Numbered from the stretch's first letter, positions 37,249 through 64,000 are shown. The stretch: 64,000 bases of DNA from Psammoneis japonica (GCA_008632985.1 QPGO01000278.1:1-64000); one strand, 5' to 3'. Notes: generated by a model not told the origin, from the letters alone. Made by a program: numbers and translations.

Positions 37249-37392
37249 CTTGGCTTGAGGCTTGGCTTGAGGCTTGGCTTGAGGCTTGGCTTGAGGCTTG
37301 GCTTGAGGCTTGGCTTGAGGCTTGGCTTGAGGCTTGGCTTGAGGCTTGGCTTGAGGCTTGGCTTGAGGCTTGGCTTGAGGCTTGGCTTGAGG
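37249..37392 (+). repeat. Perfect 12-bp minisatellite (CTTGGCTTGAGG)x12 in the A2 5' UTR
   Basis: Twelve identical units counted directly. Confidence 0.97.
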
Positions 37393-41000: not shown

Positions 41001-42045
41001 ATCGGCATTTCGCTCATGGTGCAAGGTGGGAAAAATCCTGGTCGTGCACGCACAGAATCGCAGCATGTTTCTACAACAGAAAATTTTTGTCAAAGTTGAG
41101 CTCAAAAAGTTGTCGGACCAAAAATGGCAGTGCCGGCTTGTTGCAGCTCACAAAATGATCGAATGAAGAAAGAATCAACAGCACAGAGAAATTGTGACCA
41201 GCACAAGGCCACAACCTGTCAGAGCACCAAAAGGACAGAGGCAACAATGGGTCAAAGACTCCCCAAAGACTGGGACAGTGATGCAACACGTGCGCCAGTG
41301 ATCAAGAATGAGAGGATCTCGGATGGAGATCCACGAGGCCATCTAAAAGGGTTTGTCCATCAATCCTGCAGTGCAGTCTGTCAGCATGCCATCATCCAGT
41401 AGACTGACACCAGCATTGATGACATCAGGTGGACACGGCAAGCAGAGCTCCAGCCCAGACCCAGTGCAACACCTCACTGCTGTCTGCACAGCAGATGAGT
41501 CTCCGTGCGTGCAGAGACCATTGCAGGTGCCCCTGTGAATGATGGGGACATGTGTTCCAGGGTCAGGAACAGTTTTTAGTCTGGCCAGGTAGAAGTGCCT
41601 GGTCTCATGCCTGTGATGGCACACCCAAATGTGCAGACACCCAGATGGCTAAGACACTTGGTTGGTGTGACTCGAGCCCAAGCCCACTTTGGCATTTGTG
41701 CCAGAATGTGCCACCATTGCTGACAGATTTCCATTCCCTGACTGAGAAATGGAGTGATCTTCCAGCACTCATGCCATCAATTTGTCGCTGTTGCTGTTTT
41801 CTGTTTTGTTGTTCATCATGCAGGCTGACTGCCAAAATTCCATTCTTCTTAGATTTTTGTCACTCCCCATCAACCTGAAACTGTGAATGTCACTCATCCA
41901 TCTCTTTTCAGTGGCTCCTGGCTTTGCTGACAAATGAACCCCAGAATCAACTCTTGTCACCACTCATGCATTTGTGTCCTTGCAATGTTCTCATTGCTCA
42001 ATGACAGCTCGAGGTTGTTGACAAGGGTCATCAAAACTGTCAATC

Positions 42046-42286
42046 TGACAGAAATTGAAAATGGCTGGGTGGAAGAATGACTCCTTGCTGCTGTCTAAAC
42101 AGCAGATGAGCATCCATGCAGAGACTGTTGCAGGAGCTGAAAGACTGGTGTTGTTGACATCGGTGCCACTGTTGTCATTCTTGTGAGCCATGTGGTTTGA
42201 AAGCAAACTGCATCGCTTGACGCGCACCGAACTAAGAGCACACATGATTGTGTGTGATGAACTAAAATCTTGTTCAAATCCTGTCA
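42046..42286 (-). repeat. Family A LTR (3' LTR of A3)
   Basis: TGACAGAAATTGAA...TTCAAATCCTGTCA, followed by CTCCCCAG (the PPT on the minus strand). Confidence 0.9.
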
Positions 42287-45200
42287 CTCCCCAGTTTGCT
42301 TGAGGGGTCAACAGCAACAGATTCAAGGTCAGATTGGCAGAAAGCCTCGGGATTGAAGTTTAAAACATCAGAGGATGAAGGAGGTTCCAGACTTGGGAGC
42401 AACCCCAGTGCTTGACAAGGATGTCAGCTGGGTTGTGGGAGCTTTCAATGAAATGAAACTCAAGGAAACCAGAAGCAATTGCCTCATGCACATGATGGAA
42501 CAAGAGGGCAGTGTGTTGCTTGTGTGGCTTGGAGTGCGGGATGGCAGCACTGTCCACAACCAACTTGTTGTCCCCAAACATGTGACATGTTTCAGGAGTG
42601 GGGACGCCAAGGTGATGTGAAGTGTTGCACAGATCAATGATCTGCTCAACGCACGTCCTTGCAGCAACAAACTCAGATCCACATGTGGCAGTCTCGACTG
42701 TTGCTTGTTTCTTGGAGAACCAATCAGCTGGAAACTGGTTGAGGAAATGAAGGATGCCGGTGACAGAGCATCGGGTGAGCATGCAATGGATCAAGTTCAC
42801 ATTGACGCAGTGTGTCATGGTGACAAACTTGCCAAGTGGCTCGGGCACATCTTGCGGGAGCAGCTCTTCTACCTCCCCACACTCTGATTGGGCCCAGTCA
42901 CACATGGGCTTAGGAAGGTCCGAACAGTCAGGCTCCTTGGTGCACACTTGGAGGGCACCATGACGCATCTTGGAGAGGAATCCGCAGACAAGTTTGGCAC
43001 GGTCCAGGTGGCCCTGGTGGGGTGCTGCACAGAAGCCAGACAGAGACATGACAGCCGCAGTGATGTCAATGTGACCAAGGGATGCGGCCCATTGCAGGGA
43101 ACCAACTGAGGATTGAAATTGGTGGATGCCATCCGGTTCAAGCAATTTGGAAGTGTCAAGCTCAGGGTGGTCTCCCTTGTCAAGGGATGAAAGCACATCA
43201 GTGCCGGGTTGGGGTCAGTTGTCAACCATGCGCTCAATGCACTTGCGGGGGGCAAGGCACAGGGTGCCGTCTGGATCGAGGGTGAAATTGCAACCAAGAT
43301 GGAACTCCAATGGTCCAGTGCCCTTGAGCTTGAACTTGCATTTCTACATGAGGGTGTCTGCAAAATCCTGGAGGTCCTTCATGGTGAAGGCCAGGTCGTC
43401 CACATGTGCTGCCATGCATTTGTGGTGTGCACCATTCCCACGCAGCCAGATGTCGGGTTCAGCTTTGCATGGGAAGAAGCCTTCAGCAAGCAAGCAATCA
43501 GCAAAGCGTTCATGCCATCTGAGGCCAGAGCTGTGGAGTCCGTACAAGGCCTCATGGATGACAAGGATGTGTCCTTCTAGCTTGCCGAATTCAGGGCCTG
43601 CTGCGATGTTCAGTTTCTCCTTGGTTGCAGCTTTGAGGTGGGCATTCCCAATGTCGGTGGCCCAAGTCTCCAGTCAGTTAAGTTCGGCTGGGAAGATCAT
43701 CATTTGCAGGCCACGAAGAGACACTGCTCCGGAATGGACACTGTGGACGGGTGTGTCTGTGAGGTGTCCATCGGCAACAAGCCTTGCTTTGTGCCATTCG
43801 TCATGTTTGACGTCGCAGACAAGATGCACCTGGATCTTCTTGTGTCCCAATGGGGCACTGGAATCTTTGTAATGTCCGCAGTCGTGGAAGACCTTGCACT
43901 CATCAAGCTGAGTCATCTCGAGGTCTGTTGCGTCTCCCCACTTGCGGTTGCCATTGCGCTCATCAAGGGCCAAGGGTGTGCTTGCAATCCCATGGCACTT
44001 CATGCCCGTCGATCATCCTTGGCAATGATGGCAAGGGGTTCGGACGTGATCTCCCCATTCTCCCATTCAAGCATGACATTGTAGCTTGAGCCTTTCCAAG
44101 AGGGATCATGGGGTTGCAATGGTCCTTTGTGCCATGCGATGCATCGGAACTTCAAGAGGGCAGTGCCCTCATCTTCTTGTTCGATGTGGTGCATGATGTC
44201 ATTGTGGGCTGGGACTTCCTTGCATTCGTCATTGTTGATGGAGCAAATGAACTTGACCAGTTCAGGATTGTCTCTGATTTTCCAGTCATGGTCTTCAACG
44301 GCTTTGATGATGTGGGCTCTGTGGCATTGTCCATCCTCTTGTGGCTTCATGAGGAAGGCACGTCCGATGATGTCCTCGGGGTCAAAGACTGGCATTTTGG
44401 GAATCCTGATCGCCTCCCCATCTGGTGAATCTGGTGAATCCTTGGAGTTGTGGCAGGATTCAATGATGGGCTCAGCAGATTTTTTGTCAGGAGGATCAAG
44501 ACACAGGTTTGGAGCAGACGGATCATGGGTGGAACGCATGTTGGAACAGCAGAGAATCTTCTGAGTGTCATCAGAAAGAATCTTGAACGTCATTTGGTGG
44601 CCCACGTGTTTGGCAATGCCAACAAAGCGACCACGTAATTCACAGGATTTGGACAGCCAGTTGGAATCATCCAGGTGACAACACACGGGTTCCCACCATT
44701 GAAAACAGAGGAGTGGGCTGATGTCGGGAGTAGAGCCGGACAGCACTTCGGTGGGGGTACGCCAGTGGAGCTTGGCAGACGCTGTGTGGTTGAGCAGGGT
44801 GCACATGTGCATCAGGGCGAGCAGCCAAGTGTAAGCCGGAGACCCAAAGCAATCCATGATGGTGTTGGCCATGGTCTTCACAGTTTGGTGGCGATGTTCA
44901 GCAAAATTCTGATGCTGTTGATGAGGCTTGCTTTGCCCACTAGAGATGAAGAGGGCACGGAGGATGCCAAGAACCTTGTTGCTGATCTCAACTTGAGCAC
45001 GGTCGCTGATGAGCTTGGATGGGGCACCATGATTGTGAATGTTGTCCTCAAGCATGTCAACAAATTCTCTGTTGGTCTTCATTCCGTGCACGTCCGTGAC
45101 AAGGGATTCGGTGCCAACAAAGAGCTGGGTGCTGGTGCAGCCGGAGTCAACGGCGGGCGTGTCAGAGTGCACCGTGTCAGAGGCAATGGGTTTGTTGCAT

Positions 45201-47860
45201 TGGTGAACATTTAGAGACGGGTTGGGTGACTTGTGCACCTTTTTCAAGTGAGTGCTGGCTGGCATGCGGGCACATTGTGTCGTGCAATCAAAAGTGCAGC
45301 AAACAGTGTCCTTCGGGAGAAAGCCAAAATGAGGGTGCAGAGACTTAAGTCAGGATCCTTTGGATTGATCTCGTGCCAATTGCATTCACAGAAGAATTCG
45401 GATGTCGGGAGCAGGTGGTCATCAAGGATGGAGTCCACAAGCATCGTGTTGTTGACAACATGACAGTGGTGACAGTTGCCGAACTCATCAAAGAGGTTGG
45501 CAGTTGGGTTGGCCTGGAGGTCAGATGCAGCATCATGCTGCGTCTCATTGTCGGTGAACTGGTGGTCCAGGACAGATGGGTCCCAGGTGTCATCACCAGT
45601 GAGGACAACATGTGGCAAGGTGTCCCATTTGGCATCAGTGTGCAGATGCATGGCGATGTACGGAAGGCCACCTTTGATGTCAATGGGGATGACGCATCCA
45701 TCAATGGTGGTGATGCATGGCAGTTGCTGGTGTGGGCGGTGTGCCAGCCAAGGATGATGGCCTTGGTGGACTGGGGCAAGGTGTCCCAAATGCTGATGGT
45801 CTGGCGGGATGCGATGCCATTGTTCCCTGGTGAGGGATTTGCTGCAAGACTGTGCAGCACAAGCTTGGACAACATCAACATCACTGTCGATGTCAAAAAA
45901 TGCATCATCATCAGGATCGTCAGGGGCCAAGTCATGTTCGTGTGTGGCATGGCGCGGAGCGCGAGGAGCCGTCTTGGGGGTGAATGTGCTGTTGCACTGT
46001 GCTGCTGCAGAAAGCAGGAGCCCACAGTGCTGTTTGTAAGAAAGACCTCTGCCATTCTGTGTGCGAAACTGATTGGCCTGATTCTTTGCCGAACGAAGTT
46101 CTTTGATGGGATGAACGGCATTCTCAAGCATGATGCGTTTCCGGCCATCACAGAAGTGGTCCGCACCCAGAATGAGAGCTTCACACTTGCAAAGCTGGTC
46201 TTGCCAGTGAAGCATGAAGGCATGAGTGGATCCTTTCCAGGTGCCATCACCAAGGCGGGCAGTGGTGAGGTGCAAGAGAAGGGTTGAGGGCTCCAGGGAT
46301 GTGCGAGCAGATGCAAGTGCACACTTGGACAGGTCACGACACACTGCTTGAGCATCAGAGGAGCCGACATGTTCACGAACAAGTGCCTTGCCTTTGTTGT
46401 TCTGCAAGATGTGTTCAAATGCGGCGAACATGCATTTCTGTTGTTCGTCGAACAGGGCCTTGTCCTCAGCTGTAGAGGGCTTGTACATTGGATCAAGAAT
46501 GCGGTCGACGTCCTGGGAGTGGGCCTGTGCAACGATGGAGGTGTGCCACGTGTGCCACTGTTTGTTGGACTTGAGAGTTGCAAAGGTGAGAGGGTCACGT
46601 TTGATGCCTCATTTTAAGTCACACACATGATCACGTGGTTTGGGTGGCAATGAGCCAGGAGTGGGAGCAGATGGTGCTGCACCGATGGAAAGGGACGCTG
46701 CGCACTCAGGACTAAGACAACAGTCAGTGAACTCCTCACATGTGAACAAGTGAGGGTCGTTGCTAACATCGGTGCCACCGCGCACTTTTGCCATGTGCAG
46801 ACTGATCAGCACAGCCATCTGTGCTTTGCAACCACATGGCAAGGGGATCTGATTGGCGCCATTGTTGTGAACCAGGGCATCCAGTTGCATCAGAGTAAAA
46901 GTGAAGAGATCCTGATGTGAGTCAGTTCCATCAATGTTGAGGGCGGAGCGCAATGGACTGTCTGTGGCTTGATTCAGAACAGTGCCCAGAATGTGCTCGA
47001 GGCCATCAATTTGTTGCTGCATGGTGAGAACCATGTTGCAACTGGGTGGGTGTTGGGACTGGCTAGAGTGGGAGGGTGAGCTTGAAACAACTTGAAACTT
47101 GACTTGAATCTTGACTTGAAGTCTTGAACAATCTTGCAAGTCAGAAGCCACTGGGCTGTGATGTCCCATTTGCAGTTGAGTGCTGAGCTTCCTTTCCAGT
47201 CCATGGAGTTGTGCTGGCACATCCAAACCCGCAGCTGGCAACGCTTTGGGTTGCCTGAGAGTGGAGCAACGGGTTAAAAACCCCTGCATCTGCTGACAAG
47301 CTGACCAGAGGTGGACAAGACCTCCGAACCGTTGTCATTTTGTGTCAGTTGGACAACCCAATCAGGCCGGCCAAATTTGGCACTGTGGAGGGACAAACAA
47401 ACATGGGAAATGCACCCTTGCCCCAACGCAGGCTGCAATCATGAACTGCTTCCTCTCACAGTTTTCCTCGTGGACCTTGCAGGACTGTAGAAGACCAGCA
47501 ATCCGGTGCAGACATGAGGCAGTAGACTTGGCGTGCGTGGAGCAAGGCCAGAGTCAAGGGTTTGCATCATGTGCGTGTGGACGTGAGTGGATGGATTGGT
47601 CTCTCTGCCAACCAGGGTAGAATCCGCTGTGTGGAATCCAGAATCTCGGATGTCTGAGAATTTGGAAATTCCTGACCAAACAAACATCTGTTGAACAAAC
47701 AAATCCAACGATGGGAGGCATTGGATGAATCCAAATGCACAGATTTAATCCAGCATCCAGCAGTGAAGAAGGCAGATGTGCACTTCCACCGCCAACAGTG
47801 CGCGTCATCGAAAAATTTCTCGACAACGATGATGAACGCTCAATGGACAAGAATGAGCAT
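42046..47860 (-). mobile_element. Copia family A copy A3 (5' LTR missing, protease deleted)
   Basis: UTR 47040-47860 resembles A4; gag MVLTMQQQIDG at 47034; integrase ORF 44000-45265; RT (KARLVADGH, YGLHSSG, HVDDL); RNase H ORF 42360-43196; PPT and LTR. Confidence 0.92.
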
Positions 47861-48581
47861 CAGAGGGCACAACATGGTGATCTGGCTTTGCCTTTTCATT
47901 GTGATTTTTGTCTCTTTAACAGATGAAATTTTCACAGTTTCAAACCTTGTTGGTCTTAGTGGATCGTGTCATTCCTGCTTGGACACAGGGATCTCTGTCA
48001 GGTTGTGAGCAATGCTCACACAGACGTGCAAGCAAGGCTCCTCTGCCACTGCCGACAACACATTTTCCTCTCGTTTCATTGTCGACAACACCGGCAGAGA
48101 GCGCCCACATCGTAAACTTTGCCGCTCCATCGATGACAACGACGTCTGCGTCTCGGATGCTGATTCACGCCATTGCTGTTTGTTTTTGCAGCTGCTTGCG
48201 TGGGTGTCAGTGTGCCTTCTACGTGCATCGCGATCTCCCTGGGTACACACCACAGAGATCCGACACATGCTGCCCCCACATGGTGGAACGACATTGATTT
48301 TTATTTTCGTTGTCGCTCACCATGGCCCCTGCTAACAGCACCCATTCGAAAACGGCATCCTCTTGGCAGGACACTCTGTCATCACTCCAGGCCGCTGTGT
48401 CACCTGTGTCGGCCGACGACTCCCCCATCTCTCCTCCTCCGGCGGAGACTGACCCCACTTCTGCTGGTGATGCAATGGCAGAGGACACTTCGGTGCCTCA
48501 CGATGCGCCCACGGCAGAGGACGCAATCGAGGTGGAAGCCACCATTGCGGCAAACATCACTGCTCCGGAAGCTGATGCGAG

Positions 48582-48857
48582 TGACAGAAATTGAAGGCAA
48601 ATGGCAAGAATTCAAACAACAACTCCTTGCTGCTGTCTAAACAGCAGATGAGTCTCCGCTCAGAGACCGTCACAGGAGCCGAAAGACGTGTGAGTCGGTG
48701 CAATCAGGCCACTGTCATCATTCTTGTGAGCCTTGTGGCTCGAAAGCAAACTGCATCGCGCGCGAACGCGCTGAACTAAAGCACACAAAACTGTGCGCGG
48801 CAAACTAAACAGCGTGCGACATTTCGCGCGCACCTGAATCCTGTTCAAATCCTGTCA
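48582..48857 (-). repeat. 3' LTR of A4
   Basis: TG...CA with a 14-bp imperfect terminal inverted repeat; PPT adjacent. Confidence 0.95.
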
Positions 48858-48889
48858 CTCCCCAGTTTGCTTGAGGAGTCACAGAAACA

Positions 48890-51800
48890 GATTCGACTTC
48901 GGATGGAATGAAGTTCCAGAACATGAGGGGGCGGAGAAGGTCCCAGACTTGGGAGCAACCCCAATGCTTGCTGAGAATGTCAGCAGGGTTGCGGGAGCCT
49001 TCGATGAAGTGGAGCTCAAGGTGACCAGAGGCAATTGCCTCACGCACATGGTGGAATGACAGTGCGGTGTGTCGCTTGTGTAACTTGGAGTGCGGGATGG
49101 TGGCACTGTCTACAACCAACTTGTTGTCACCAAACATGCAACTAATGTCACGGATTGGGACGCCGAGGCAACGCAGGGCAATGCGCAGGTCGACAATCTG
49201 CTCGACACAAGTCCTTGCAGCAACAAATTCGGACCCGTGGGTCGCAGTCTCCACACGGTGGCTTGCTTCTTAGAGAACCAATCAGCCAGGAATTTGTTGA
49301 GGAAGTGGAGCATTCCCATGACAGAGCGTCCGGTGAGCATGCAATGACACAAGTTTGCATCGACGCAGTGGGTGGCAGTGACAAACTTGCCAAGGGGCGG
49401 TGGAGCATCCTTCGGGATCATCTCCTCTGCTTCGCCGCACATGGAATGCATCCATTCACAGGGCGGTGCAGGGAGATCCCAATGGTCTGGCTCTTCCGTG
49501 CGAATGCGGAGAGGGCCGTGTCGCATCTTGGAGAGGCACCCACAGACGCGTTTGGCACGATCCAAGTGGCCTTGATGGGGTGCAGCTCGGAAGCCGGAGA
49601 GTGACATGATGGCCGTGGCAATGTCAATTCGACCAAGAGACACTGCCCATTGGAGGGAACCAACAAGAGACTGGAACTGTTGAATGCCATCGGGCTCCAG
49701 CAGTTCGGAAGTGTCCAGTTTGGGGTGGTCACCCTTTTCCAGAGGGGACAGGATGTTGGTGGTGGGTTTCTCCCCAAACAGTCATGTGCAGCTGTTGACG
49801 TTGACCATGCCTTCGATGCACTTGCGTGGAGACAGACACAAGGTGCCGTCAGGATCACGGGAGAAGTCGCAGCCTAGATGGAACTCAATCGGCCCCGTGC
49901 CCTTGAGCTTGAACTTGTGCTTTTCCGTGAGGGTGTCGACAAAAGATTGAGGATCCTTCATGGCAATGGCGAGGTCATCCACACAAGCAGCAACACATTT
50001 GCAGTGGTCGCCGTTCCTGCGCATCCAAATGTCGGGTTCGGCGCGGCAGGGGAAGAAACCTTCAGCTCGCAGGCAGTCGGTGAAGCGCTCGTGCCAGTGG
50101 AGGCCGGAGCTGCGCAGTCCATGCAGGGCCTTGTGGATGACAAGAATGTGGCCTTCGAGTTTGCCAAATTCGGGTCCAGCTGCAATGTGCAGCTTCTCCT
50201 TGGTGGTGGCTTCAAGGCAGGCATTGCCAATGTCGGTGGCCCATGTCTCCAACTCGTTGAGTTCGGCCAGGAAAATCATCAGCCGAAGGCCACGGAGGGA
50301 GACCACTCCGGAGCAGACACTGTTGATGGGCATGTTGGTGAGGTGCCCATCAGCTACGAGTCATGCCTTGTGGCGGCTGTCGTGTTTCACGTCGTGCACC
50401 AGGTGCACTCGGATCTTCTTGTGTCCCGCAGGAGGAGTGGAAGACCAGGAGGGCCCGCAGTCATGAAAGACTTCGCATTCATCGAGTTGGTCCATCTCGA
50501 GATTAGTTGCGTCTCCCCATTTGCGGTTGCCGTTGCGTTCATCTGGTGACATGGCATGTTTGCAGTTCCGGGGAACTTCGCATCCGCACTTGCAGCGAGG
50601 TGCAGTGCGGAAGGAGCGAAGCTTGGCTTGGTTGGCCATGCGGAATGGCTTCTTCTGGCGCCTCGCGATGGTGCGGAACCGCTTCCAGCCATCAGTGTCG
50701 AGAAGTCCGTTCTCTCGTGCATAGATGGCGCAAGTGACAGGGTCGTCCTTGGCGATGATGGCAAGAGGCTCGGACGTGATCTCCCCACTTTCCCATTCAA
50801 GCATGATGTTGTAGCTTGAGCCTTTCCAGGTTGGGTCATGAGGCTTCAGAGGTCCTTTGTGTGACACAATGCATCAAAATTTCCAAACAGCAGTGTCTTT
50901 GTCTTCTTGCTCAATGTGATTCATGATGTCGTTGCAGGCCAGGACTTCCTCGCATTCGTCGTTGTTGACAGAGCAGACGAACTTGGTGAGCTTGGGGTTG
51001 CTGTTCACTTTCCATTCGTGGTCTTCGACGGCCTTGACGATGCGAGCTCTGTGGCGTTGTCCGTCCTCTTGTGGCTGCATGAGGAAGGTGCGTCCCATGA
51101 TGTCTTGCGGATCAAAAACTGGCATCTTGGGTGTCTTGATCTCCCCATTGGGTGAATCGACGGGGTTGTCGTCATGGCGAGTGACAGAAATTGAAGGCAA
51201 ATGGCAAGAATTCAAACAACAACTCCTTGCTGCTGTCTAAATGGCGGATGAGTCTCCGCTCAGAGACCGTTGCAGAAGCCGAAAGACGTGCAAGTCGGTG
51301 CAATCGGGCTGCTGTTGTTGTTCTTGTGAGCCTTGTGGCTTGAAAGCAAACTGCATCGCGCGCGAACGCGTGGAACTAGAGCACACAAAACTGTGCGCAG
51401 TGAACTAAACAGGCAAACCGAAACGATCCATGACAGTGTTCGCCATGCGCTTCATGGTCTGGTGTCGACGTTCGGCAAAGTTTTGGTGTTGCTGGTGAGG
51501 CTCACTTTGCCAGCTGGAGACAAAGAGGGCTCGCAGGATCCCGAGCACCTTGTTGCTGATCTCAACTTGAGCACGGTTGCCAATGAGTTTGGATGGAGCA
51601 CCACGCTCACGGATCTGATCCTCAAGTGTGTTGACAAACTCTTTGTCCATTTTGGTGCCGCAGACGTCAGTGACGGCAGACTCAGTGCCAACAAACAGTT
51701 GGGCGCTGGTGCAACCAGAGTCGATGGCCGGGGTGTCGGCATGAACGGTGTCAGTGGTGACGGGCTCATTGTGGTGGTGCACATTGAGGGCGGGGTTGGG

Positions 51801-52770
51801 CGACTTGTGGGCCTTCTTAAGGTGTGTGCTGGCATGCAAAGAACACGTCGTCATTCGGAATGAGGTGGTCATCGAGGGCGGACGTGTGATCGGCAGACAA
51901 GGAGGCGGACATGATGGCCTTGTTGACAACGACACGGTGACGGCAGTTGCCGCATTCGTCAAAGAGGTTGGCAGTGGGGTCGTCCTGCAGGTCAGAGATC
52001 GCGTCGCACCACTGGTCGTCATCAGTGATGGAGTGATTGAGGATGGAAGGATCCCATGTGTCATCACCGGTGAGGATGACATGGGGCAGGGTGTCCCAAT
52101 CGGCGTCAGTGCAGGGTCGCATGGCAGCATGAGGCAGGCCGCCCTTGATGTCAATTGGGACGACATGGCCATCAGGGGTGGCGACACGTTGCAAGCCATT
52201 GGGCACCTTGACAGAGCGATCGTTGACATCATGTTTGCACCATTCGAGCTGGCCGCAGGAATGAACGGTCTTGCCTTTTCCCGTTTGTGCACACTGATGG
52301 AGGATGGCGATGATGGGACCACGCTGTGTCTCAATGACGGCACCAGCGGTGACAATGGGGATGTCCACCAATTGATGGTCGTCAATGCCCTGAACGTCGA
52401 CTTGGTGAGAGGTGCGTGCAATGACACAAACGTTGTCACCAGCAATGCCGCCGTTGGCTCCACGATCGACCAGAGCACCAGTGCGGGTGGAGCGGTGAGC
52501 GGAGGCAGAGCAAATGACATTGTGGGCATTGACGTGGCGGTGGGCACGGCCGTTAAGTTCCATGTCATCTGCAGGAGCAGGCGAGGTAGAGGGAGCGGCG
52601 GATGGGCCCGGTCGACTGGCATTGGGGGCTTGGTTGGGAGACAACAGGCGTTGCAGATCACCGGGTGGCAGTGGCTTGCACTTGGTGAGGTGCGCCAGAA
52701 TGGGATCATCTGAAGTGGCATCCACATTTGGAGCAGGGTCACCAGAGTCAGCAGGAGTCGTGTTGGACAA
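48890..52770 (-). pseudogene. pol: A4 pol (PR, IN, RT, RNase H), frameshifted
   Basis: ALVDRGANGG, KEFVNTLEDQIRERGAP, SEPHQQHQNFAE, TDIGNACLEA, ALHGLRSSG, CVDDL, ETATHGSEFVAAR, NPADILSKHW. Confidence 0.92.
51182..51412 (-). repeat. Extra partial family A LTR inside the A4 integrase
   Basis: Matches 48582-48812 and replaces the integrase C-terminal part present in A3. Confidence 0.9.
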
Positions 52771-52799
52771 GTTGACATCACCGTCACTCCCAAGTCGTT

Positions 52800-54162
52800 G
52801 GTCGTGAAGGTTGACCGCAACGGACTCATGGCAGTTGCTGGCTCACGGGTTGCGGGGAGGCGGACGAGAATGCTCAAGGATGATCGCCTTGGAGGAATGG
52901 GGCAACGAATCCCAAATCCGTTGGTGGTCGGGAGGGAGACGATTCCATTGGTCACCGGCGAGGCTGGGACCGCGGGCGCAGGCAGTGTTAGCCTGAAGAA
53001 CGTCAATGTCGCTGTGGATGTCACAGAACACATCATTGGATGGTTCCTCGGAGTGGACGTCGTGTGCGTGTGTGGTGCATCGGGGAGCTCAAGGTGTCGT
53101 CTTGGGTTGAAACGTGCTGTCGCATTGAGCCACCGCGGAGAGGAGCAAGCCACAATGTTGATCACATGTGAGGCTCTTGCCACTCTGCGTGCGATGCTGA
53201 TCAGCTTGGTTCTTGACAGCACGGAGTTCCTCGACAGGATGTGCGGCATTCTCGAGCATGACGCGCTTCTGTCCTTCAGAGAAGTGGTCACTGGCTGGGA
53301 TGAGTGCCTTGTGCTTGCGCAGCTGATCCTGCCAATGAAGGATGAACCCGTGGGTCGGACCTTTCCAAGTGCCATCACCAAGACGTGCGGTGGTGAGGTG
53401 CGTGAGCAAGGTGGAGGACTCGACAGAAGCGCGGGTGGAGGCAAGCGCATGCTCGGACAAGGCGTGGCAGACGGTCTGGGCGTCAGAAGACCCCACATTT
53501 TTGCGAATGAGAGCCTTGCCCTTGTCGGTGAGAAGGATGCATTCGAAGACGGCGAACATGTGCTTTTGCTGTTCAGCAAAGAGCAGTTTGTCTTTGGGGC
53601 TGGTCGGTTTGTACGACGAGTCTAGAATGCACTCGACGGCTTGGGCATGGGCTTGTGCCACAAGTGAGGTGTGCCAAGTGTGCCACTGCTTGTCGGATTT
53701 GAGAGCCGTGAAAGCGGTGGGGTCACACTTGATGCCTCGCTTGAAGTCTCGCAACGGGTCGCGTGCCTTGGTCGGGTTGGTGACATGCGGAGGTGCGAGG
53801 GGCGAGCTGCTGACGGACACAGAAGACATGCAGTCGGGGCTGAGGCGGCAGGCAAGGAACTCCTCATGCGTGAACAATGAGGAATCATTGGCAACGTTGA
53901 GACCTTTGTGTGCTTTGACAATGCACAGACCAACTGGAGCTGCTGACATGTTCTCATGAGCACGGGGCAAAGGGATCACATTAGTGCCGTCATTGTGCTC
54001 AAGCGAGTCGATTTGGGACGGCATGAACGTGAACAGTTCTTGACACGAGTCCGTGCCGTCGTGGGTCAAAGCCAAACGAAGAGGGCTCCCAGCACTTTGG
54101 GCAAGCACGGTTCCAACAACGTGCTCGAAACCATCGGTTTGTTGCTGACGAGTGAGAACCAT
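52800..54162 (-). pseudogene. gag: A4 gag
   Basis: ORF 53089-54162 MVLTRQQQTDGFEH..DFKRGIKCD..FILHWQDQ..MLENAAHP, continuing after a stop. Confidence 0.88.
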
Positions 54163-55098
54163 GGTAGACGAAAGCGGTGTCAGGACAAGCGATTCTTGTT
54201 GGGACGCGAAGGTAGACTTGAAACTTGGGTGAGAATAGACTTGACTTGAAACAGACTTGACTTGAAATCTTGAACTACCTTAAAATCAGAAGTCGCCGGG
54301 TTGTGCTATCCCGTTCGTTGTTGAGTGCTAAATTTCCTATCCGGTCTGTAGAGTTGTGCCGGCACGTCCGAACCCGCAGCCAGCGGCGCTTTGGGTTGCT
54401 TACGAGCGGAGCAGCGGGTTGTAAACCCCTGCAGCTGAGCTGACCAGAGGTGGACAAGACCCCCGAACCGTTCTTGTTTTACATCGGTTGGATTTCCCGA
54501 TCAGGCTGGCCAGTTGACGTAGGCGTCAGGCGCTGTGGACGAACGAACAAACGTGGGAAAACACCCTCGCCCCAACGCAGGCTGCAATCATGGCTGCTTG
54601 CTCTCACAGTCATCCTCGTGGACCTAGCAGAACTGCAGAGCACCAGCAGTCTGGGGTAGATCAGGTGCAGTGGACTCGGTGTGCTTGTAGAGTGGTGGCA
54701 AAGCCGCAGTCCAAAGAGTGGGTGCAAGTTCTTGGCCATGAAGACACAGACACACACATGTCTTCAGTGATGAAGATCCTTGAATGTGCAGGGTTCTTGA
54801 CCGTTAACGGTTGAATGGGTGTGTCAAGGGATGAGGATCAAGGATGGACTTGGGTGTGACCGTTGAATGCATGTCTTCAGCGACAAAAGGTGGCACAATC
54901 AATCCAGATGTCCAGCGGCAAGGAGACTTGACGGTGATGTTAACTTCCTGCCGATGCCTGGCATTGAATGCGCGCAGACTTGCCAGTGCACGTAGAACAT
55001 GTGCGGAGGTCCACGCAGAATTGAAATGGCATCGTCGGCAAATCAACAACAATGATGGCGGTTGCTCAATGGGTTGACAATGAGCAAGACTGTTGATC

Positions 55099-55374
55099 TG
55101 ACAGAAATTGAAGGCAAATGGCAAGAATTCAAACAACAACTCCTTGCTGCTGTCTAAACAGCAGATGAGTCTCCACTCAGAGACCGTTGCAGGAGCCGAA
55201 AGACGTGCAAGTCGGCACATTTGGGCTGCTGTTGTTGTTCTTGTGAGCCTTGTGGCTCAAAAGCAAACTACATCGCGCGCGAATGCGCGGAACTGAAGCA
55301 CACAAAACTGTGCGCGGCAAACTGAACAGTGCGCCACATTTCGCGCGCACCCAAATCCTGTTCAAATCCTGTCA
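55099..55374 (-). repeat. 5' LTR of A4
   Basis: Ungapped direct repeat of 48582-48857. Confidence 0.95.
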
Positions 55375-55379
55375 GCGAG

Positions 55380-57688
55380 CCCTGCACAGATGGAAACCCC
55401 TGCCTCTCTCTCAGAACAGCCGCCGCTGCCAGTGCTCCCAACCCTGCCTCCATGCTTGCCACCTGCCCTGCCTCCTGAGTGGCCTCACACGCCTCCTGGC
55501 AATCCCCCGCAGCCTGAGGAACCTCCCGACCCTCCACACTTTCCTCCGACATCGCCTCAGGCTCTTCTCAAAATGCACGAGAGTCATCTTAACTCGGCTG
55601 TTGCCCGCATCCACGAATGTAAATGGGCACTGGATGTCTCTGCGGAAGAAGTTTCCAGGCTCAAGCGGGAGCTGCGCGACATCCGTTCGGTCACGAACAA
55701 TCACGCCTCGGCCATCACGGACCTCAAACATGCCAGTGATTTCAACCTCCTCTGTGCCAAGGTTCAGACCCAAATGAAAGCAACTGCGGATGAAGCTGTC
55801 GCTTTGGCTGGCGACGCGGCCAACAAAGCTTTGGCGACACTTGATGCCCAATTCCTGGAAGCTCTTGACAAGAAGATTGTTCCGGTTTACGAAGCTGTGG
55901 AAGCAACGACACTCGAATGCATCCGCACCACATTGACGAATGCACAAAACAACATGGCGTCTTTTGTGGTGGACCAAACCAGCCGGCTGGAATCGGCCAC
56001 CTCAGAAGCTGTCCGTGCTGTGGGTGACCACGTCGGTGCCACCCGTAAAAAGTTCCAGGCTCGACTCAAGCACGACGTTAAACTACAAACGGACAACCTG
56101 GATGTCACCCTCACCAGATTGGACTCCACCAAGAATGCTGCAGAGCAGATCATTCAAAATGGCTTCACTGTGGCCAATGCAATGGCAGCCCTTTTGGAAG
56201 ACTGTGAAAACGCCGCTGCACCCTCGTCTGTGGACACCTCGTCTTCTCCGGCTGCAGGCCTCCAATGTGTCACGAAGGACCACCTGGCGGACACGCTGAG
56301 AGATGACTTGGACGGCCTCCAGGCTCAACTGACCCTCCAACAGGACACCGCTCAAGTGCACGCCGGTGAGATCAAACACGCCAATGATGCATCTGAAGCT
56401 GCTCGGCGTGCGGCAGCTGGCGTTCAGAAGGAACTGGGCAAATGTCTGTCGGAGTCATCGAATCTGACAGCAAACTTGTCACCCGCCACACTGGATCCTG
56501 GCCCAAAGTTTACAGAATGCATTGCTTCGTCATTGGACAACATCGCCGATCGTCTCGTGAATTCGCCTGATCCCACAATCTCTCCGGCACCCCCGGCCGT
56601 TGGCACCAATCATGCTGCTACGAGCAAACTGGCCTCCTCTTCAGAATGACACTGCAACTCCAAAACCTTCCGTGAGACCCCCAGCCCCTTTCTCCGTTCC
56701 ATGGAACCAAACGACATCGCTCTGTTTCTCAAAGGCATGTGCACACGGTGCACCCAGGCCCATGTTCCCATCCAGGATCCGGACACTCTTACTCGCGCGC
56801 AGCCCGACTTCTTCAACCCGATGTTGGTGAGCACGTCCCATCGTCAACGGCACGCGATTGAGACACATTCCAAATTGGTGTGGGATGACGCACTTCCAGA
56901 TCACCGACTGTGTGACGGGTGGAAAAAGACACATGCCGCATCGATGGACGGTTTTGCGATCCTCAATCACCTCGCGGCTCTTGGACTTCCACCCCTGACG
57001 GGCAAAGTGGTTGACACCCCATCCTGGAAAGGCGACCTTTGTGAGCTTGTGGCAGAATTCACCATTTGCTTCACTGCCGTGGAAGCCTTGCACGCCAAGA
57101 CGGATCCCACTGCACCCCCAGCCTGCTCGGAACGCCAGAAGTCTCTCAAATTGCTGGAGGGTGCTCCTTCTCAAACACCGCCTGAATGAGATTGGGGACT
57201 CCGCTCCCCTGCCCCATGATCTCCACCTGGTCTCTCTTGTCACACAGATTGACCCCAGGCTCACTGCGAATGCCGACCCGATGGGATCTTTGAGTGCATT
57301 CCACGGCCGACTGTCTCGCGGCCGCCAGTCCGTTTCGCCAGATCGACAGCACACCCCATTCCAGCCCCAGAAGGATCTCATTTGTGATGCATGCGGAGCG
57401 TGCGGCCACAGTCATTGTGGCTGCACTAACCTGGCCCGCACTGCTTTGCTGTTGGATTTCATTGAGGTGAACATGGAGAAAGCCAAGTCCATTGTTTCTA
57501 AATGGCAGTCTCACAACCAACGCCGCAAGGACTCGCCACGCCCAACTGCCCGTCCATTTACGGCCGATGTCTCTCATGACATTGCCGACCATGTGATGGA
57601 TGAAACGGCCTCGGACCTCCTGTTTGAATCGGGCGCACCTCTGGATTTTTTTTGTAAGCCAGCCGCATGCTCCATCATTGTGCGGTGA
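55380..57688 (+). pseudogene. gag: Copia B gag, 3' part (coiled-coil region and CCHC zinc knuckle)
   Basis: ORFs 55390-56649, 56701-57189 and 57011-57688; CDACGACGHSHCGC = C-x2-C-x4-H-x4-C. Confidence 0.75.
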
Positions 57689-60600
57689 ACGGCTCACCAA
57701 TGGCTGCGGGGCAGATGATCGGGACGATTCATCGTCTCTGCCTTCCACTGACTCTCCGATCCCTCCTCCAATCTGTTGCTCATTCGAATCCAGCATCCCC
57801 TGCTTTAATCAGCTGCCGGACTGGAGTCATTCAGGCCACCCTCCCAATCTCGCTAGCATGGATTCGGATTCTACGACGTTGCACTCGATGCGGGACGACG
57901 ACTCACTTTCCCTGTCAGACGAGTTGTGGGCTGCGGCGGTCGAGGATTTTGCCGAAGATCCTCAGGCTGCTCTTCACCACTTTGCCACCAAATTTGAGTC
58001 AATGGAGTCCGTCACTCCTCCCACCATTGCGCTTTCCACAGCTCTGGCACTGGAACATGAAACCGCATCACTGCCCACCTTTCACCATGCCAGTGTTGGG
58101 AACCTCACTCCGGACTCTCCAGTGGAAGTGTCAGGACAGACGGACACAGGTGCCAATTGCAGCGCCACATCTCAACGACACCTGCTTGCCAACTGCCGCC
58201 GCTTTATGAATCCCAAACCCACGAGCACAGCTTCTGCATCCAACACCACCCTCACGGCGCTGGGTGCAGGCATGTGCATCATCCGTGACATGGATGATCC
58301 CGAGCATGACATTCCGATGTTCTGCTGCCCTGGGCTGGGTGAAACCCTGATTTCGCCTGATCATCTGTGCAGAGCGTCCAAAGAACAATGCAGCCAATGC
58401 CATGCTTCGCACTTTCAGGATTCTGGTCATGGCATGCTCACGGTGACTGATCGGGACCGCTCCCTCATCCGGTCTTTTCCGATGGTGCGCGCTGACGGCT
58501 TGTGGTTCATGCCACGGCTCCACCCCGATGTGCCACCAACTGACGGACACACGGAACTGGAGGGTGCAATGCGCACGTTGCGGATGCATCCACCGACATC
58601 GAGAGACCTCGGACATGAGTTCGATGTGCCCAATCCTCCCGGCAAATGCGAACAGCTTGACTCGGATGCCCCATCATCCCCTGCACCCACGGACCCTGTC
58701 CCCGAGCATCCCAGTGTCAGCGAGGACCCGCCCGATGTTCCCGCTCCCCACTTGTCCTCCCTTCAACGCATTGACACCAGCGAACTGTGGCACCACCGCC
58801 TGGGTCACCCTGGCATGCACCAACTGTCATGCCTCCGCCGTCATGCTACAGGCATCCCATCGTCCGCTGATGCCACACCTCATCCCCATTGATCATGCTC
58901 CGCATGCAACGATGCCTGGCACAGGTGTGCTCCCATGGGCACCCCACAGGATGACATGGACTTGGAGCCAGCGGCGTGTTTCCAGATGGACTGCAGGCAC
59001 ATGTGATGCGGAAAGGACGGCATTGAGCGCATTGTTCAATCACGGGACGGGTGCAATTCGCACCCACTGGTTGTGGATGCTAAAACTCGGCACACGTGGG
59101 TGTTCCTCACCCCGAGTGAGGACCCACCAATTGAACTGGTGGACGCTTTCCTAGCTCGGCACAAGCGCACCAATGGTGCAAGCACGGTCAGGGCAGATCA
59201 AGGTGGAGAACTGGCCCACTCTGAGGAATTCCGGAAGGTTTGTTTGAAACACGACCATGTCGTGGAGCCCACCGGTGCGGACGCCCCATGGCAGAATGGC
59301 AGGGTTGAGATTTTGAATCGCACTTTTGGCGTCATGGTGCGAGCTCTGCCATGCTCATTGGGTCTCCCGGCCACCTGCTGGGCCGATGCCCTCACCCATG
59401 CGGTGTACCTCAAGAACCGGCTGTGGCACTCGGCCATCGATGTGACTCCGCACCAGGCATGGACGGGTGAGGTTCCAGACTTGTCACATCTCCGGGCATT
59501 TGGATCTCGCATGTGTGCTCGGCGTCCTGGGAAACTGGCTGCCAAATTGGACAAACATGCCTTCCACGGCATCTTTGTTGGACACTCGGCTGCGGACGGC
59601 AACGTGCGACATGTGGATGCCACATCCGGACGAGAGAAGTCTACTCCGCACGCCATGTGCAACGAGGCACACTTCACTCAACCGATTGGGCCTCCTGGTC
59701 CTCAGCTCTTGTTCGATCTTGGCATCCAACAGGTTGCACCTCCATCCCCGCCTCCCCACAAGCCAGCGGCCCCAGCACCACACCCCCCTTGTGCTCAACA
59801 AAGGCTTGTCTCCACCCCCCCCCCTGATGAGCCTGATCCAGGGTTTGCCGCTTGGTGAAAACACGTTGTTTCCCAATGCCCAATGTCACGCGATGGCTGC
59901 TGCTTTTGCATCCAAGGACCCCGTCACCCCCGAATCCGTTGCCAATGTTGCGATGTCCTTCGATCCGTGTGACGACTCTTTTGATGTACCTTTGCCCAGC
60001 CGCGGGTCTAGAAAACCAAGATTGGGTTTTGAGTTTGACTGTGACCCCCGCCGCCATCGACTGCGACTCCGTCANGTCACTGTCACCCTGGATCACAGGC
60101 GGCGCGGATCCCACGATGGCTATCCGAACTCCGACGCTCGTGCCTCATTGCAGTTAACACCCGGCCTGTCCACGATTTTGCTGACCTCGACCGCGTTTTA
60201 GCCGACATCAATCCGGATGCTCAGGACGTTGTGCTCCGCTTTGCCCACGACCACCGGTCACCGACATTGGATGCTGCGGGATTGCCACAACTGTTTTTGG
60301 ACCAGATCAACCACGTCCACCATCAGCTCAACTCCATGCATGACCCCACTCTTCCTTCATTGTACAAGCTCACACGCCGGAAACTCCAGACGCAGGAAGA
60401 TTGGCCCGACTGGGAATCGGGTGAATTCAAATGGCTCGACATGCACAACAGCCAAGGCATGTTTGGGGATCCCATTCCTGCCCCTCAGGAAGCCCGCGGT
60501 GTTCCCATGGGTGTGGTCACACTTGGTTAAGAACGATGCGGCCCGCACCAAGAAGGCCGGCGGAGCATGTGATGGCAGCCCCAGAGCTGGATTCGTCCAA

Positions 60601-62170
60601 ACACTGGCCCAGACACATGCCGCGTCTGTTGAGCAACCTGGCACTCGCCTGTTCTTTGCTTTGGCAGCCCTTAAAAACAAACGGGTGTACGGCGCGGATG
60701 TCAGCAATGCCTTCGCTGAAGCTCCTCCTCCTGAGCAACGGCTCTGCATGAGAGTGGACAAAGTTTTTCAAAACTGGTGGACCAAACACCTGGGTCGCCC
60801 TCCCATCCCCGAGGGCTGTGCACTGCCTGTGCCACACGCGCTCTCCAGGGTCACCCCGAATCTCCCCGTTTGTGGAGCATGCATGTGGACAAGATCATCC
60901 GTGAACACCTCCATCTTGCCCCAACCACCCATGAACCATGCACACACAGCGGCACAGTGAATGGCGAAGAGGTGCCATTTCTGCGTCAAGTCAATGATTT
61001 CGCCATTGCAATGGACTTGGACGCCACATGTCAACACATGTGCGACATTGTGGATGACCATCTTGCCGGTGGCAAGATTGAACATCAGGGCTTGCTCACC
61101 CTGTTTCTTGGTTATGATGTGGAACAGACAAAAGACTGCATCCGGCTGCAAAGTGCCTCCTGCATAAAACGGATCTTGGCTGACCATGCTTTCCTGACTG
61201 ACGACAACCTCGGCCCACCTCCCGCCATCCCGATGCCCGGTGATGCCTCCCATTCCAAATCCCTTGATGAGGCTCCCACTCCGACTGACTCCAAGGCATC
61301 CAAGACCCTTCAACAACAACAGGGTTTCTCTCACCGGAAGGCAGTCAGTGCACTGACATGGGCCATGGTCACCACCTGCGTGGATCTCAGCTGCTCGATC
61401 ACCAAGCTAAGTCAATTCAGCTCCAATCCTGGACAACTGCACTGTGAAGGTGTGAAGCATTCTCTCCAGCACCCCAAGCATCACCCGGATTTCGGACTTA
61501 CATGCTGGCGTCAACAACCCAACACGATGCTCCCCCATGCTCCTCCTCCACCTCCGATGACTGCACCCCATGACCGAGTGCCGCTGCCCCCTCAGGCTTC
61601 ATCTCCTGCCGAGCTCACCGGCTACAAGGACTCTGATTGGGCTGCTGACATCCGACACCGCCGCTCGATTGCCGGCATTGCGTTTTTCCCAGCGGGAGCT
61701 GCAATCGCATGGAAGACCAGAGTGCAACCGACTGTGTCAACCTCTTCATCGGAAGCAGAGTTTGTCGCTGCATCGGACACCGGCAAAATGGCACTTCATC
61801 TCCGGTCTGTCATGGATGAACTGTCGGTCCCCCAGATGCAAGCTACATTGGCATGCAAAGACAATGGTGCATCCCGCAAGATGGCCGCCGCAAGCCAACC
61901 CACACGCCGCACCCGCCACATTGATGTCCGCCATTTCGCTCTTCAAGACTGGGTCGAACACGACTTAGTTCGACTGGATCGCATTGACACATCAGCAAAT
62001 TGCAGCGACATGCTCACCAAGAATGTGGCGCGCATCTTGTTTTTCTGCCATTTGGATGCGTTGAGTGGACGTCACCATCCCCTCTGTGTGCCAGACAGCA
62101 GTGACGACACACCACTGCACTGTTCACTAGAAGAAAAGTGCACCCAGACTCACAGGGGTCACGATTCTCC
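57600..62170 (+). pseudogene. pol: Copia B pol (PR, IN, RT, RNase H)
   Basis: TDTGAN, LWHHRLGHPG, RADQGGEL, QNGRVE, ADVSNAFAEA, ALQGHPESPRLW, RQVNDF, DSDWAAD, SSEAEF, RHIDVRHF, DMLTK. Confidence 0.92.
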
Positions 62171-63035
62171 CAGTGTGGGGGGGTCTCAGTGGATCGTGTC
62201 ATTCCCACTTAAGATGCAGGGATCTCTGTCAATCAGTTGTGCAGCTGGTAAAAAATTTTAATCTGTGACAGCCAATTTTTTTTAACTGTAGAGACCTCTT
62301 TTTGTCCACAAGAAAAAACCTCAAGGACACATCCACGGGGGTGAGGGCAGACATTTACGGACCCACAATTTTTTGGGACAATGACCGGATGCACTGCACC
62401 AAATGCACGCGCGTTCGCCAAATGAAATTCCAGCAATGGGTCTGACTTTGTCAGTTCCCAAGACATCATAGAATGCACAAACGATGGTTGTGACCATGTG
62501 CGATCTTTAGCTTGTCGACTGTAGATGTGTCCACAGCCAATCAAACGCCAATTGTCGGCATTTCCTGGAAAGTTGCAGCTCATCTGCCATGAGCAGCGCG
62601 ATTTTGGCGAAAATTGGCGGCAATTTCAACCTGGCAACAGGGCATGGGCCGACAAGTGGCATTTGAAGCTTCAAACATGCAGCTCACACAGCAGTCTAAC
62701 AGCCCTGATGAGGGTTTGTCGAACACATGAGTGTTTGGGGGTGTTCGGAGACGGGTCCAAATGGCACGGCGAAGTGTGGGAAAATCAGCACCCACAACCC
62801 ATTCGCCTCACCCCCGTGGACACATCCTTGACTGTGTAAATGTCCCCCTCTTTTCCCATTTGGGATGTGCCTTCATTCACTGTGACTGCTGACAATCAAT
62901 GTCATTGGCAATTTTCACATCATGTGACAGTTTTGTTGTCCAAAGGGACAAACACAATGAATTTGGTCCACTCTTTTCAATCAACCAAGATGCATCGCTG
63001 TGGCTTTGTGACATCTGTTGTCAATCAATGCTGAG

Positions 63036-63943: not shown

Positions 63944-64000
63944 ACGGTGTTTCTTTTTGCATTGATCGCATTGAGCACGCTTTTTTTAGCCCAGTCCTCC

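Follow-up and report, generated by a model that had tools for sequence, protein, structure and literature searches.

Element A4 and the surrounding nest

The window, i.e. the whole stretch of 64,000 nucleotides of Psammoneis japonica DNA analyzed here, consists from ~1 kb onward of nested LTR elements of the copia and gypsy types (Table 1). A4, a dead Ty1/copia retrotransposon, runs along the minus strand, which makes the LTR at 55099 its 5' LTR. An RVT_2 match (E = 1.1e-17) follows the integrase, integrase-like sequence being located upstream of the reverse transcriptase (RT) in the sense of the element. The LTRs have TG...CA ends and are bordered by a 5-bp target duplication. The pair of 276-bp LTRs with intact GCGAG described in the first-pass annotation was recovered at the coordinates of Table 1. 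The RT/RNase H region contains three in-frame TGA stops and its YVDD motif reads CVDD. The integrase motif PHQQ was dropped as a candidate Tyr-to-His change because the homologs carry His there too. The best protein matches of the copia and gypsy elements of the window share 57-65% identity and are mostly metagenomic; the 150-aa open frame covering LTR c had no matches in a protein search.

The internal partial LTR copy b stands in place of ~411 bp that are found between integrase and RT in the older copy A3. GCGAG also precedes copy b and, therefore, a flank-plus-LTR junction was copied into A4 after insertion. Sequencing contigs of one sample (4 runs) were aligned to positions 41900-55500. 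Abundance of the family is high, with 18,622 pieces in X1, and the variants are mostly transitions. One X1 contig links 48576 to 55375 with five letters in common, its shorter side comprising only 20 letters, and lends weak support to an empty site of A4.

Table 1. Features of the A4 locus and of the surrounding TpA-depleted domain
Feature	Coordinates	Strand	Remarks
Dead Ty3/gypsy pol (RT, RNase H, integrase) across the domain edge	1..3018	+	
TpA-depleted, CA/TG-enriched domain; nested LTR elements of copia and gypsy type	950..64000	.	
Truncated family-A LTR copy s	8070..8251	-	182 bp
A3, older family-A copy	42046..48581	-	~75% identity with A4
Target-site duplication GCGAG, left copy	48577..48581	.	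directly before 48582
LTR a of A4 (3' LTR in element sense)	48582..48857	-	276 bp, TG...CA ends
Degenerate RT/RNase H region of A4 (RVT_2)	49113..51170	-	
Internal partial LTR copy b	51177..51412	-	LTR part 51182-51412, 231 bp, GCGAG in front
Integrase-core remnant of A4	51408..51800	-	aligns to integrase part of the homologs' consensus
LTR c of A4 (5' LTR in element sense)	55099..55374	-	276 bp; 90.2% identity with LTR a, gap-free
Target-site duplication GCGAG, right copy	55375..55379	.	directly after 55374

The LTRs of A4 differ predominantly by CA/TG swaps

LTR a and LTR c differ at 27 sites, 24 by transition and three by transversion. Sixteen of the sites form eight CA/TG swaps, while three are TA/TG, three CG/TG and two CG/CA differences. 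The eight swaps and three TA/TG sites counted previously were thus reproduced, with exact agreement in all seven swap contexts and three TA/TG contexts that had been listed. Within this LTR pair there was no double difference other than CA/TG and no transition outside TA- or CG-derived contexts, and conversion of TpA to TpG or CpA is compatible with 17 of the 27 letters that changed. When 24 transitions and three transversions were placed at random on LTR a in 20,000 trials, swaps arose with a mean of 0.36 and a maximum of four, compared with the eight observed. The same signature dominates in the window's three remaining LTR pairs, for which such a check had been suggested (23, 5 and 4 swaps), and TA/CG pairs occur in none of the four. 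A TG-to-TA-to-CA 'flip-flop' via RIP-like C-to-T changes was rejected on the grounds that the A4 pair is devoid of transitions outside TA/CG contexts. The background spectrum of the pair is odd, with three transversions versus no transitions outside these contexts, and this counts against the explanation that we favor below.

TG and CA products are both present in each A4 LTR. This, together with the divergence of two LTRs that belong to a single insertion, shows that the mutation occurred after integration, at the level of DNA and on both strands. In this respect the first reading of the sequence was correct. Base modification at TpA might also have led to systematic base-calling errors in the assembly, a possibility considered solely because the signal is motif-specific and for which no supporting evidence was found. 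Systematic errors should affect both LTRs alike rather than produce opposite letters in them. Furthermore, of the 31-letter words sampled from 47500-57400, 47% recur in an independent run, 3196 contig pieces on 41900-55500 are at least 99% alike, and the mutation calls of a preprint on Bigelowiella natans are based on Illumina data (Mettrop et al., bioRxiv 2026, 10.64898/2026.01.13.699255). We regard the probability of an artefact as negligible.

In an alignment of the five family-A LTR copies of the window, CG is present in other copies at one of the eight swap sites (alignment column 124, atCAgg). Three other copies carry it, in line with the CpG origin that had been assigned to this swap, and CG is absent from the remaining swap sites, also as stated before. 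TA was found at the eight swap sites in none of the five copies, the states being TG, CA or, at the one site, CG. Both A4 LTRs retain 14 CpG, those of the CGCGCGCG runs among them; the survival of these runs, which had been pointed out earlier, extends to copy b. At three further TG/CA swap sites LTRs a and c are the same and other copies differ, and these sites represent the hidden class predicted by a TA-erasing model. A degenerate 21-nt LTR pattern retrieved 14 loci from metagenomes, all of which matched the pattern only and are therefore chance matches.

Ancestral state of the converted sites

Polarity was assigned with 21 outside homologs in columns where Tyr (TAY) is kept. Nineteen of the 23 conserved Tyr codons in A4 now read TGY (16) or CAY (3), whereas two are still TAY and two are TTC. 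As controls, Trp was retained in 14/14 cases, other conserved residues in 413/457 and Arg CGN in 31/38, seven of the 38 Arg codons having decayed to TGN or CAN. Tyr accounts for 3.8-5.0% of residues in the 21 homologs compared with 0.3% in the A4 RT region, where Cys and His amount to 4.7% and 4.5%, respectively. A3 has lost 92% of Tyr TA and 73% of Arg CG (22/30 CGN codons decayed to TGN or CAN). Its Tyr codons have become TGY or TGA in ten cases and CAY in another ten, and six conserved Tyr codons are CA/TG swaps between A3 and A4. The change runs from TA to TG or CA and is restricted to TpA.

A TA model with 17 sites and a loss of 0.91 yields 7.0 swaps, 2.8 one-sided changes and 0.14 sites kept in both LTRs (observed: 7, 3 and 1), and a CpG model with 20 sites and a loss of 0.18 yields 0.32 swaps, 5.9 one-sided changes and 13.4 kept sites (observed: 1, 5 and 14). 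Among the 40 best-supported of ~2,264 variant rows from the aligned contigs, at least seven places, all outside the LTR swap sites, have TA in other genomic copies where A4 has TG or CA. The TA ancestors postulated in the first-pass annotation for the swap sites agree with Tyr polarity, the A3/A4 swaps, the model fit and the mutation-accumulation spectrum given in the B. natans preprint (Mettrop et al., 2026), and they are indirectly but strongly supported.

Alternatively, all swap sites could formerly have been CpG, with deamination of 5-methylcytosine hitting both LTRs and leaving TG in one and CA in the other. CpG decay is real in this DNA, as is evident from the CpG observed/expected ratio of 0.57 for the window, the swap site with CG in three other copies and the decay of Arg CGN codons in A4 and A3. 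At least eight places among the same 40 best-supported rows have CG in other copies where A3/A4 have TG or CA, and the LTR sites themselves may constitute an unusually hypermutable CpG class. However, the per-copy loss of 0.18-0.33 in young copies predicts only ~0.3-1 swaps instead of eight and, for sites devoid of CG throughout the five copies, ~0.06 instead of seven, and 14 CpG in the two LTRs were left untouched. Neither TpA at ~0.1 of expectation nor the outgroup-polarized change of Tyr to Cys or His would be explained. With CG at one of the eight swap sites, CpG decay fails as their sole cause and is very improbable as the explanation.

It is also conceivable that ADAR-like A-to-I editing acted on the RNA, or that a cDNA strand was deaminated in reverse transcription, so that the changes were made before or during integration and then fixed. 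ADAR prefers a 5' U. A TA motif would suit this preference, as is also said in the Discussion of the B. natans preprint (Mettrop et al., 2026), and A4 has an excess of A-to-G changes on the sense strand at Tyr codons (TGY:CAY 16:3). This excess is not predicted by a purely symmetric DNA process and counts against our best explanation. On the other hand, no sense-strand bias is seen in A3 (10:10), A2 (4:2), D and N, and the depletion spans elements of both orientations and is graded inside a gypsy element. De novo mutations are moreover reported for integrated, transcriptionally silent DNA in the preprint (Mettrop et al., 2026). For the LTR differences pre-integration editing is already contradicted: one template serves for both LTRs, so that RNA editing, as had been argued at the outset, would have made them identical, and editing of one RNA or cDNA strand cannot yield both products in each LTR, where both strands were struck. 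We consider this scenario extremely unlikely.

Extent and edge of the TpA-depleted domain

Loss of TpA is regional. Observed/expected ratios for the window are 0.13 for TA, 0.57 for CG, 1.67 for CA and 1.59 for TG, so that the TpA enrichment and CpA/TpG depletion typical of fungal RIP are not found. The first 2 kb are normal (TA 0.72). With rho calculated according to our own reading of the description in the preprint, rho(TpA) is ≤0.43 in 62 of 64 1-kb segments with a median of 0.10 over the 61 segments from 3001 onward; both cluster thresholds of Mettrop et al. (2026) are passed by 47/64 segments and the one for TpA by 62/64. Stop-type triplets in the window comprise 202 TAA and 131 TAG versus 1517 TGA. 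The depletion covers elements of both orientations and sets in gradually within the gypsy pol: before position 900 all six conserved Tyr codons survive, beyond 950 three of nine.

Tentatively, the target of the TpA-erasing process may be neither individual elements nor repeats but a domain of chromatin-like nature and graded edge, with a wider preference for TAT/ATA. In this possible scenario, the edge would cut a dead gypsy gene in its middle part, from ~900 to ~3000, saturation would be reached well ahead of any visible CpG decay or background mutation, and LTR-retrotransposon nests would be a main long-term substrate in addition to viral insertions, perhaps also in a host other than B. natans.

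A model of post-integration TpA hypermutation

The differences between the A4 LTRs very probably result from hypermutation of TpA to TG or CA in the chromosomal DNA of the nest after integration. A4 would have inserted once, generating the GCGAG duplication and two identical LTRs with ordinary TpA content (~17 in 276 bp), and the chromosomal DNA of the entire nest would subsequently have undergone dinucleotide-specific hypermutation. A hit on the top-strand A would convert TpA to TpG, and a hit on the bottom-strand A would convert it to CpA. TpA equals its own reverse complement, so that either product arises in each copy at random. In two converted copies, about half of the sites are therefore CA/TG swaps; TA-to-CG products do not arise because one hit removes the target on both strands. 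About 91% of the TpA in A4 would have been converted, while slower CpG decay, with ~18% of CpG lost, would account for one swap and the five single differences. Almost no changes would have occurred in A4 beyond these two dinucleotides.

By analogy with the B. natans preprint, the chemistry would be adenine deamination on DNA, with the resulting inosine read as G (Mettrop et al., 2026), and the hypermutation may serve to defend the host against foreign DNA that has integrated. A different chemistry is conceivable, in which the T of TpA is modified, e.g. hydroxylated by an enzyme of the TET/JBP type, and then mispairs with G, resulting in T-to-C changes. At the sequence level, an A-to-G change is indistinguishable from T-to-C on the opposite strand. 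Some protists are known to possess systems that modify thymine preferentially at TpA. Still, nothing in our analysis points to thymine modification, which we deem rather unlikely. The only published proposal is an ADAT2-like adenosine deaminase candidate (Mettrop et al., 2026).

Relation to known systems

The TpA-erasing process itself has already been described in the 2026 preprint, and the novelty of the earlier reading was therefore overrated. Its authors report de novo hypermutation of TpA to TpG or CpA in integrated viral DNA of B. natans mutation-accumulation lines, with a TpA-restricted spectrum: the integrated viral DNA of two regions had acquired 231 de novo mutations, 230 of which were A-to-G or T-to-C, all of them at TpA (Mettrop et al., 2026). 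Direct evidence stems from one giant-virus and one virophage insertion, the main target is single-copy, and 124 TpA-depleted clusters are reported along with enrichment of RT domains in TpA-depleted coding sequences (Mettrop et al., 2026). Our window resembles that work in changes that are almost solely A:T to G:C, occur only at TpA and give TpG or CpA according to strand, in regional TpA-depleted, CpA+TpG-enriched clusters, in integrated foreign or mobile targets and in the involvement of chromosomal DNA. That the same process acted here is suggested by likeness of signature only. In the window, by contrast, hardly any TpA is left (median rho 0.10). The terms 'LTR', 'retrotranspos' and 'copia' are absent from the preprint text, as are the paired-LTR swap signature, a graded edge and a flank preference from its accessible sections. 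What the window adds is LTR retrotransposons in the role of target, proof from paired LTRs, a graded domain edge and a flank preference.

Apart from this preprint, our literature search for such hypermutation yielded only papers on fungal RIP. RIP is likewise a DNA-level, dinucleotide-specific transition hypermutation that riddles transposons, leaks to neighbours and spoils LTR dating. In ascomycete fungi, however, it converts CpA/TpG to TpA and enriches TpA, whereas here TpA is erased and CpA/TpG are enriched. Decay of methylated CpG, the slower second process in this window, also turns a self-complementary dinucleotide into TG and CA and hence creates swaps, but explains about one of eight and is unable to deplete TpA. 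APOBEC3, acting on cDNA, and ADAR, acting on repeat RNA, share deaminase-type hypermutation against retroelements; theirs is one-stranded, takes place before integration and leaves matching LTRs, in contrast to the two-stranded, post-integration changes observed here.

Implications

TpA-erasing hypermutation is the mirror image of fungal RIP and has so far been documented in this one 2026 preprint for two viral insertions. The same signature is seen here near saturation over a 60-kb LTR-retrotransposon nest, from sequence and outgroup polarity, and the paired LTRs provide an internal proof that chromosomal DNA was struck on both strands after insertion. LTR dating is misled, as had been cautioned: 24 of the 27 differences lie in the two hypermutable dinucleotides, and the naive divergence of 9.8% drops to 1.1% without them. 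Loss of TAA and TAG creates long false open reading frames in all six frames that mislead gene callers, and the mutated proteins are mostly missed by Pfam. The graded edge and the flank preference offer handles toward the enzyme and its targeting.

CA/TG swaps between the paired LTRs of A4

The Ty1/copia element A4 is bounded by LTRs a and c of 276 bp each, which start with TG, end with CA and align without gaps at 90.2% identity. The motif GCGAG adjoins the element on both sides, left of LTR a and right of LTR c. We counted 27 differences between the two LTRs (24 transitions and three transversions), and 16 of the 24 transitions fall in eight adjacent double differences, termed swaps here, in which one LTR has CA and the other TG. 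Double differences of any other kind were absent from this alignment. The remaining transitions are three TA/TG and five CG/TG or CG/CA differences. When 24 transitions and three transversions were set at random on LTR a in 20,000 trials, 0.36 swaps arose on average and four at most. The swap pattern is real and far above chance, and the eight swaps and three TA/TG differences that the first-pass annotation had reported were borne out. Swaps recur in the window's other three LTR pairs; TA/CG pairs occurred in none of the four LTR pairs.

Features of the window discussed in the text
Feature	Position	Strand	Remarks
Element A4	48582-55374	-	Ty1/copia
LTR a	48582-48857		
A4 interior	48858-55098		
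LTR copy b	51182-51412		partial; 51177-51412 with flank
LTR c	55099-55374		
Element A3	42046-48581		neighbouring family-A copy, ~75% identical to A4
Truncated LTR copy	8070-8251		
LTR pair	12255/18172		23 swaps
LTR pair	19076/25484		5 swaps
LTR pair	30076/36687		4 swaps
Edge of the TpA-depleted domain	1-3300		
Two long open frames	3255-5915	-	540 and 346 aa
Tandem array	7002-7631		42-bp unit
Single N	60075		

On its minus strand, the interior of A4 carries a Ty1/copia reverse transcriptase (RT; RVT_2, E = 1.1e-17), and LTR c is therefore the 5' LTR. An integrase remnant is located upstream of RT in the sense of the element. Between integrase and RT lies the partial LTR copy b, which stands in place of ~411 bp present there in A3 and is directly preceded by GCGAG, the same motif as the A4 target duplication; evidently, flank and LTR piece were copied into A4 after its insertion. 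An empty A4 target site is weakly suggested by a single X1 contig that connects 48576 with 55375, the two sides having five letters in common and the shorter one being only 20 letters. Copia and gypsy elements, nested and lying in both orientations, make up the remainder of the window.

Ancestral state of the swapped sites

A protein search with the A4 RT region, in which three TGA stops were read as X, returned many copia proteins of 49-65% identity, mostly metagenomic, and 21 copia homologs were aligned as outgroups. Tyr makes up 3.8-5.0% of the residues in these homologs and Cys 0.9-1.7%; in the A4 RT region, the shares are 0.3% for Tyr, 4.7% for Cys and 4.5% for His. The 21 homologs were then compared with the window by tblastn, and a codon entered the count only if 10 or more homologs covered it and 80% or more of these agreed. 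At conserved Tyr codons, A4 has TGY 16 times, CAY three times, and TAY and TTC twice each, while CGN was kept at 31 of 38 Arg codons and Trp at 14 of 14, and 413 of 457 conserved residues other than Tyr are unchanged. The corresponding Tyr codons of A3 are TGY (9), TGA (1), CAY (10), TAC (2) and TTY (3), with Arg CGN kept at 8 of 30 and other conserved residues at 379 of 464. Compared codon by codon, A3 and A4 differ by a CA/TG swap in six of the Tyr columns (79, 286, 318, 390, 396 and 418), which indicates that TA-derived sites do yield such swaps between copies. On these alignments, the outgroups settle the TA ancestry of the coding part. The integrase motif PHQQ was dropped as a candidate Tyr-to-His change because the homologs have His there too.

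For the LTR sites themselves, LTRs a, c and b, the truncated copy and the A3 LTR were aligned. It had been stated that one swap derives from CpG and that CG is absent from the other swap sites, and both statements hold in the five copies: CG occurs at column 124 only, of the eight. TA was found at none of the eight sites in these copies. Decay of CpG at the other seven would require its loss from every copy. At sites with CG in some copy, per-copy loss was 3/16, 5/16, 2/11, 3/9 and 9/11, from which simple arithmetic gives ~0.06 sites lost in all five, versus seven seen. We also applied a two-class model with 17 TpA sites (the random expectation for 276 bp) at a per-copy loss of 0.91, taken from the Tyr codons, and 20 CpG sites at a loss of 0.18. 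For ancestral TpA, the model predicts 7.0 swaps, 2.8 one-sided changes and 0.14 sites kept in both LTRs (observed: 7, 3 and 1), and for ancestral CpG 0.32, 5.9 and 13.4 (observed: 1, 5 and 14). This simple model fits the LTR-pair counts well. It also predicts about seven hidden sites at which a and c changed alike, and three such sites are revealed by the opposite change in other copies (columns 47, 61 and 221).

Among the best 40 of ~2,264 variant rows obtained from sequencing runs against 41900-55500, none lies at an LTR swap site. In the same 40, seven places have TA in other genomic copies but TG or CA in A4, and eight have CG in other copies but TG or CA in A3 or A4, so that both TpA loss and CpG decay are visible genome-wide. 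A metagenome scan with the LTR pattern gave chance matches only, and a protein search with the open frame across LTR c found no match. The Tyr codons of the outgroups, the Tyr swaps between A3 and A4 and the fit of the model together lend strong though indirect support to the earlier reading of seven of the eight swaps as descendants of TA.

Timing and strands

In a retroelement, a single template gives rise to both LTRs, and RNA editing would consequently leave them identical. Editing of a cDNA strand is expected to leave a one-strand bias. The A4 LTRs differ and each carries both TG and CA products, which indicates that the changes struck both strands of integrated DNA, in agreement with the post-integration, DNA-level origin proposed in the first-pass annotation. 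At the conserved Tyr codons of the A4 interior, TGY exceeds CAY on the sense strand (16:3). This excess may be local or due to chance and is without bearing on the LTR differences; such bias is absent in A3 (10:10) and in the further elements A2 (4:2), D and N. In A4, TpA loss (91%) is far ahead of CpG decay (18%), as it is of everything else.

The TpA-depleted domain

Observed/expected ratios over the whole window are 0.13 for TA, 0.57 for CG, 1.67 for CA and 1.59 for TG, and by arithmetic the TA and CG deficits together roughly equal the CA and TG excess. The first 2 kb are ordinary (TA 0.72, CG 1.02); all later 2-kb bins have TA ratios of 0.05-0.32. The fall occurs inside one dead gypsy pol gene, with TpA per 200 bp dropping from ~15 at 1-800 to 0-4 beyond 3000. 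Conserved Tyr codons of this edge element are kept at 6 of 6 positions before 900 and at 3 of 9 after 950. The edge is graded, resembling leakage or spreading, with no sharp boundary.

TAA and TAG are scarce (202 and 131, versus 1517 TGA), and long false ORFs are therefore open in all six frames. The window holds 110 ORFs of at least 150 aa, most without Pfam match even within recognisable elements. Two long minus-strand open frames are TpA-depleted and have no Pfam match, the second (346 aa) being Pro- and Gln-rich. The tandem array, also within the depleted region, comprises at least 11 overlapping copies of 60-82% identity.

The classes ATA and TAT (A before or T after TpA) account for 38 of 370 surviving TpA versus 61 of 149 swap sites, counted over 3001-64000 and the repeat pairs with some CpG-derived sites among the swaps. 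Survivors are mostly in TTAA, CTAA, CTAC and GTAA. As a lead, given those CpG-derived sites, this suggests that ATA/TAT contexts were erased first, and their avoidance by survivors may mean that the mutator prefers a wider motif.

Relation to known systems

Fungal RIP, which converts CpA/TpG into TpA, runs in the opposite direction and does not match the TA deficit and CA and TG excess of the window. Besides papers on RIP, full-text literature searches gave one match, a preprint on Bigelowiella natans (bioRxiv 10.64898/2026.01.13.699255). There, two integrated viral regions accounted for 231 of the 302 nuclear point mutations of mutation-accumulation lines; 230 of these 231 were A-to-G or T-to-C changes, all 230 on TpA, at ~6e-7 per site per generation versus 3.5e-10 elsewhere (10.64898/2026.01.13.699255). 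The preprint also describes 124 TpA-depleted, CpA+TpG-enriched clusters, enrichment of RT and DDE domains in TpA-depleted CDS, and an ADAT2-like deaminase as candidate enzyme (10.64898/2026.01.13.699255). With rho, the dinucleotide depletion measure of the preprint, computed as we understand its definition, 47 of the 64 1-kb windows pass both cluster thresholds and 62 pass that for TpA; the 61 windows that start at 3001 or later have a median rho(TpA) of 0.10. The window would belong to a B. natans-type system by its signature rather than by species, and adenine deamination, as the preprint proposes, is the probable chemistry.

The observation of the first-pass annotation was confirmed and its interpretation supported by the swap counts, the polarity at Tyr codons and the presence of both products in each LTR. 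The process itself is already described. The terms LTR, retrotranspos- and copia are absent from the text of the preprint (10.64898/2026.01.13.699255), and LTR retrotransposons are a new kind of target for this very recently reported system. The graded domain edge, the flank bias of survivors and TpA loss outrunning CpG decay are further additions, and the loss of TAA and TAG, with its false ORFs, is a trap for gene callers. The paired-LTR swap signature provides proof, from sequence only, of action on both DNA strands after integration, and nests of LTR retrotransposons serve as substrates of TpA loss over the long term, close to saturation.
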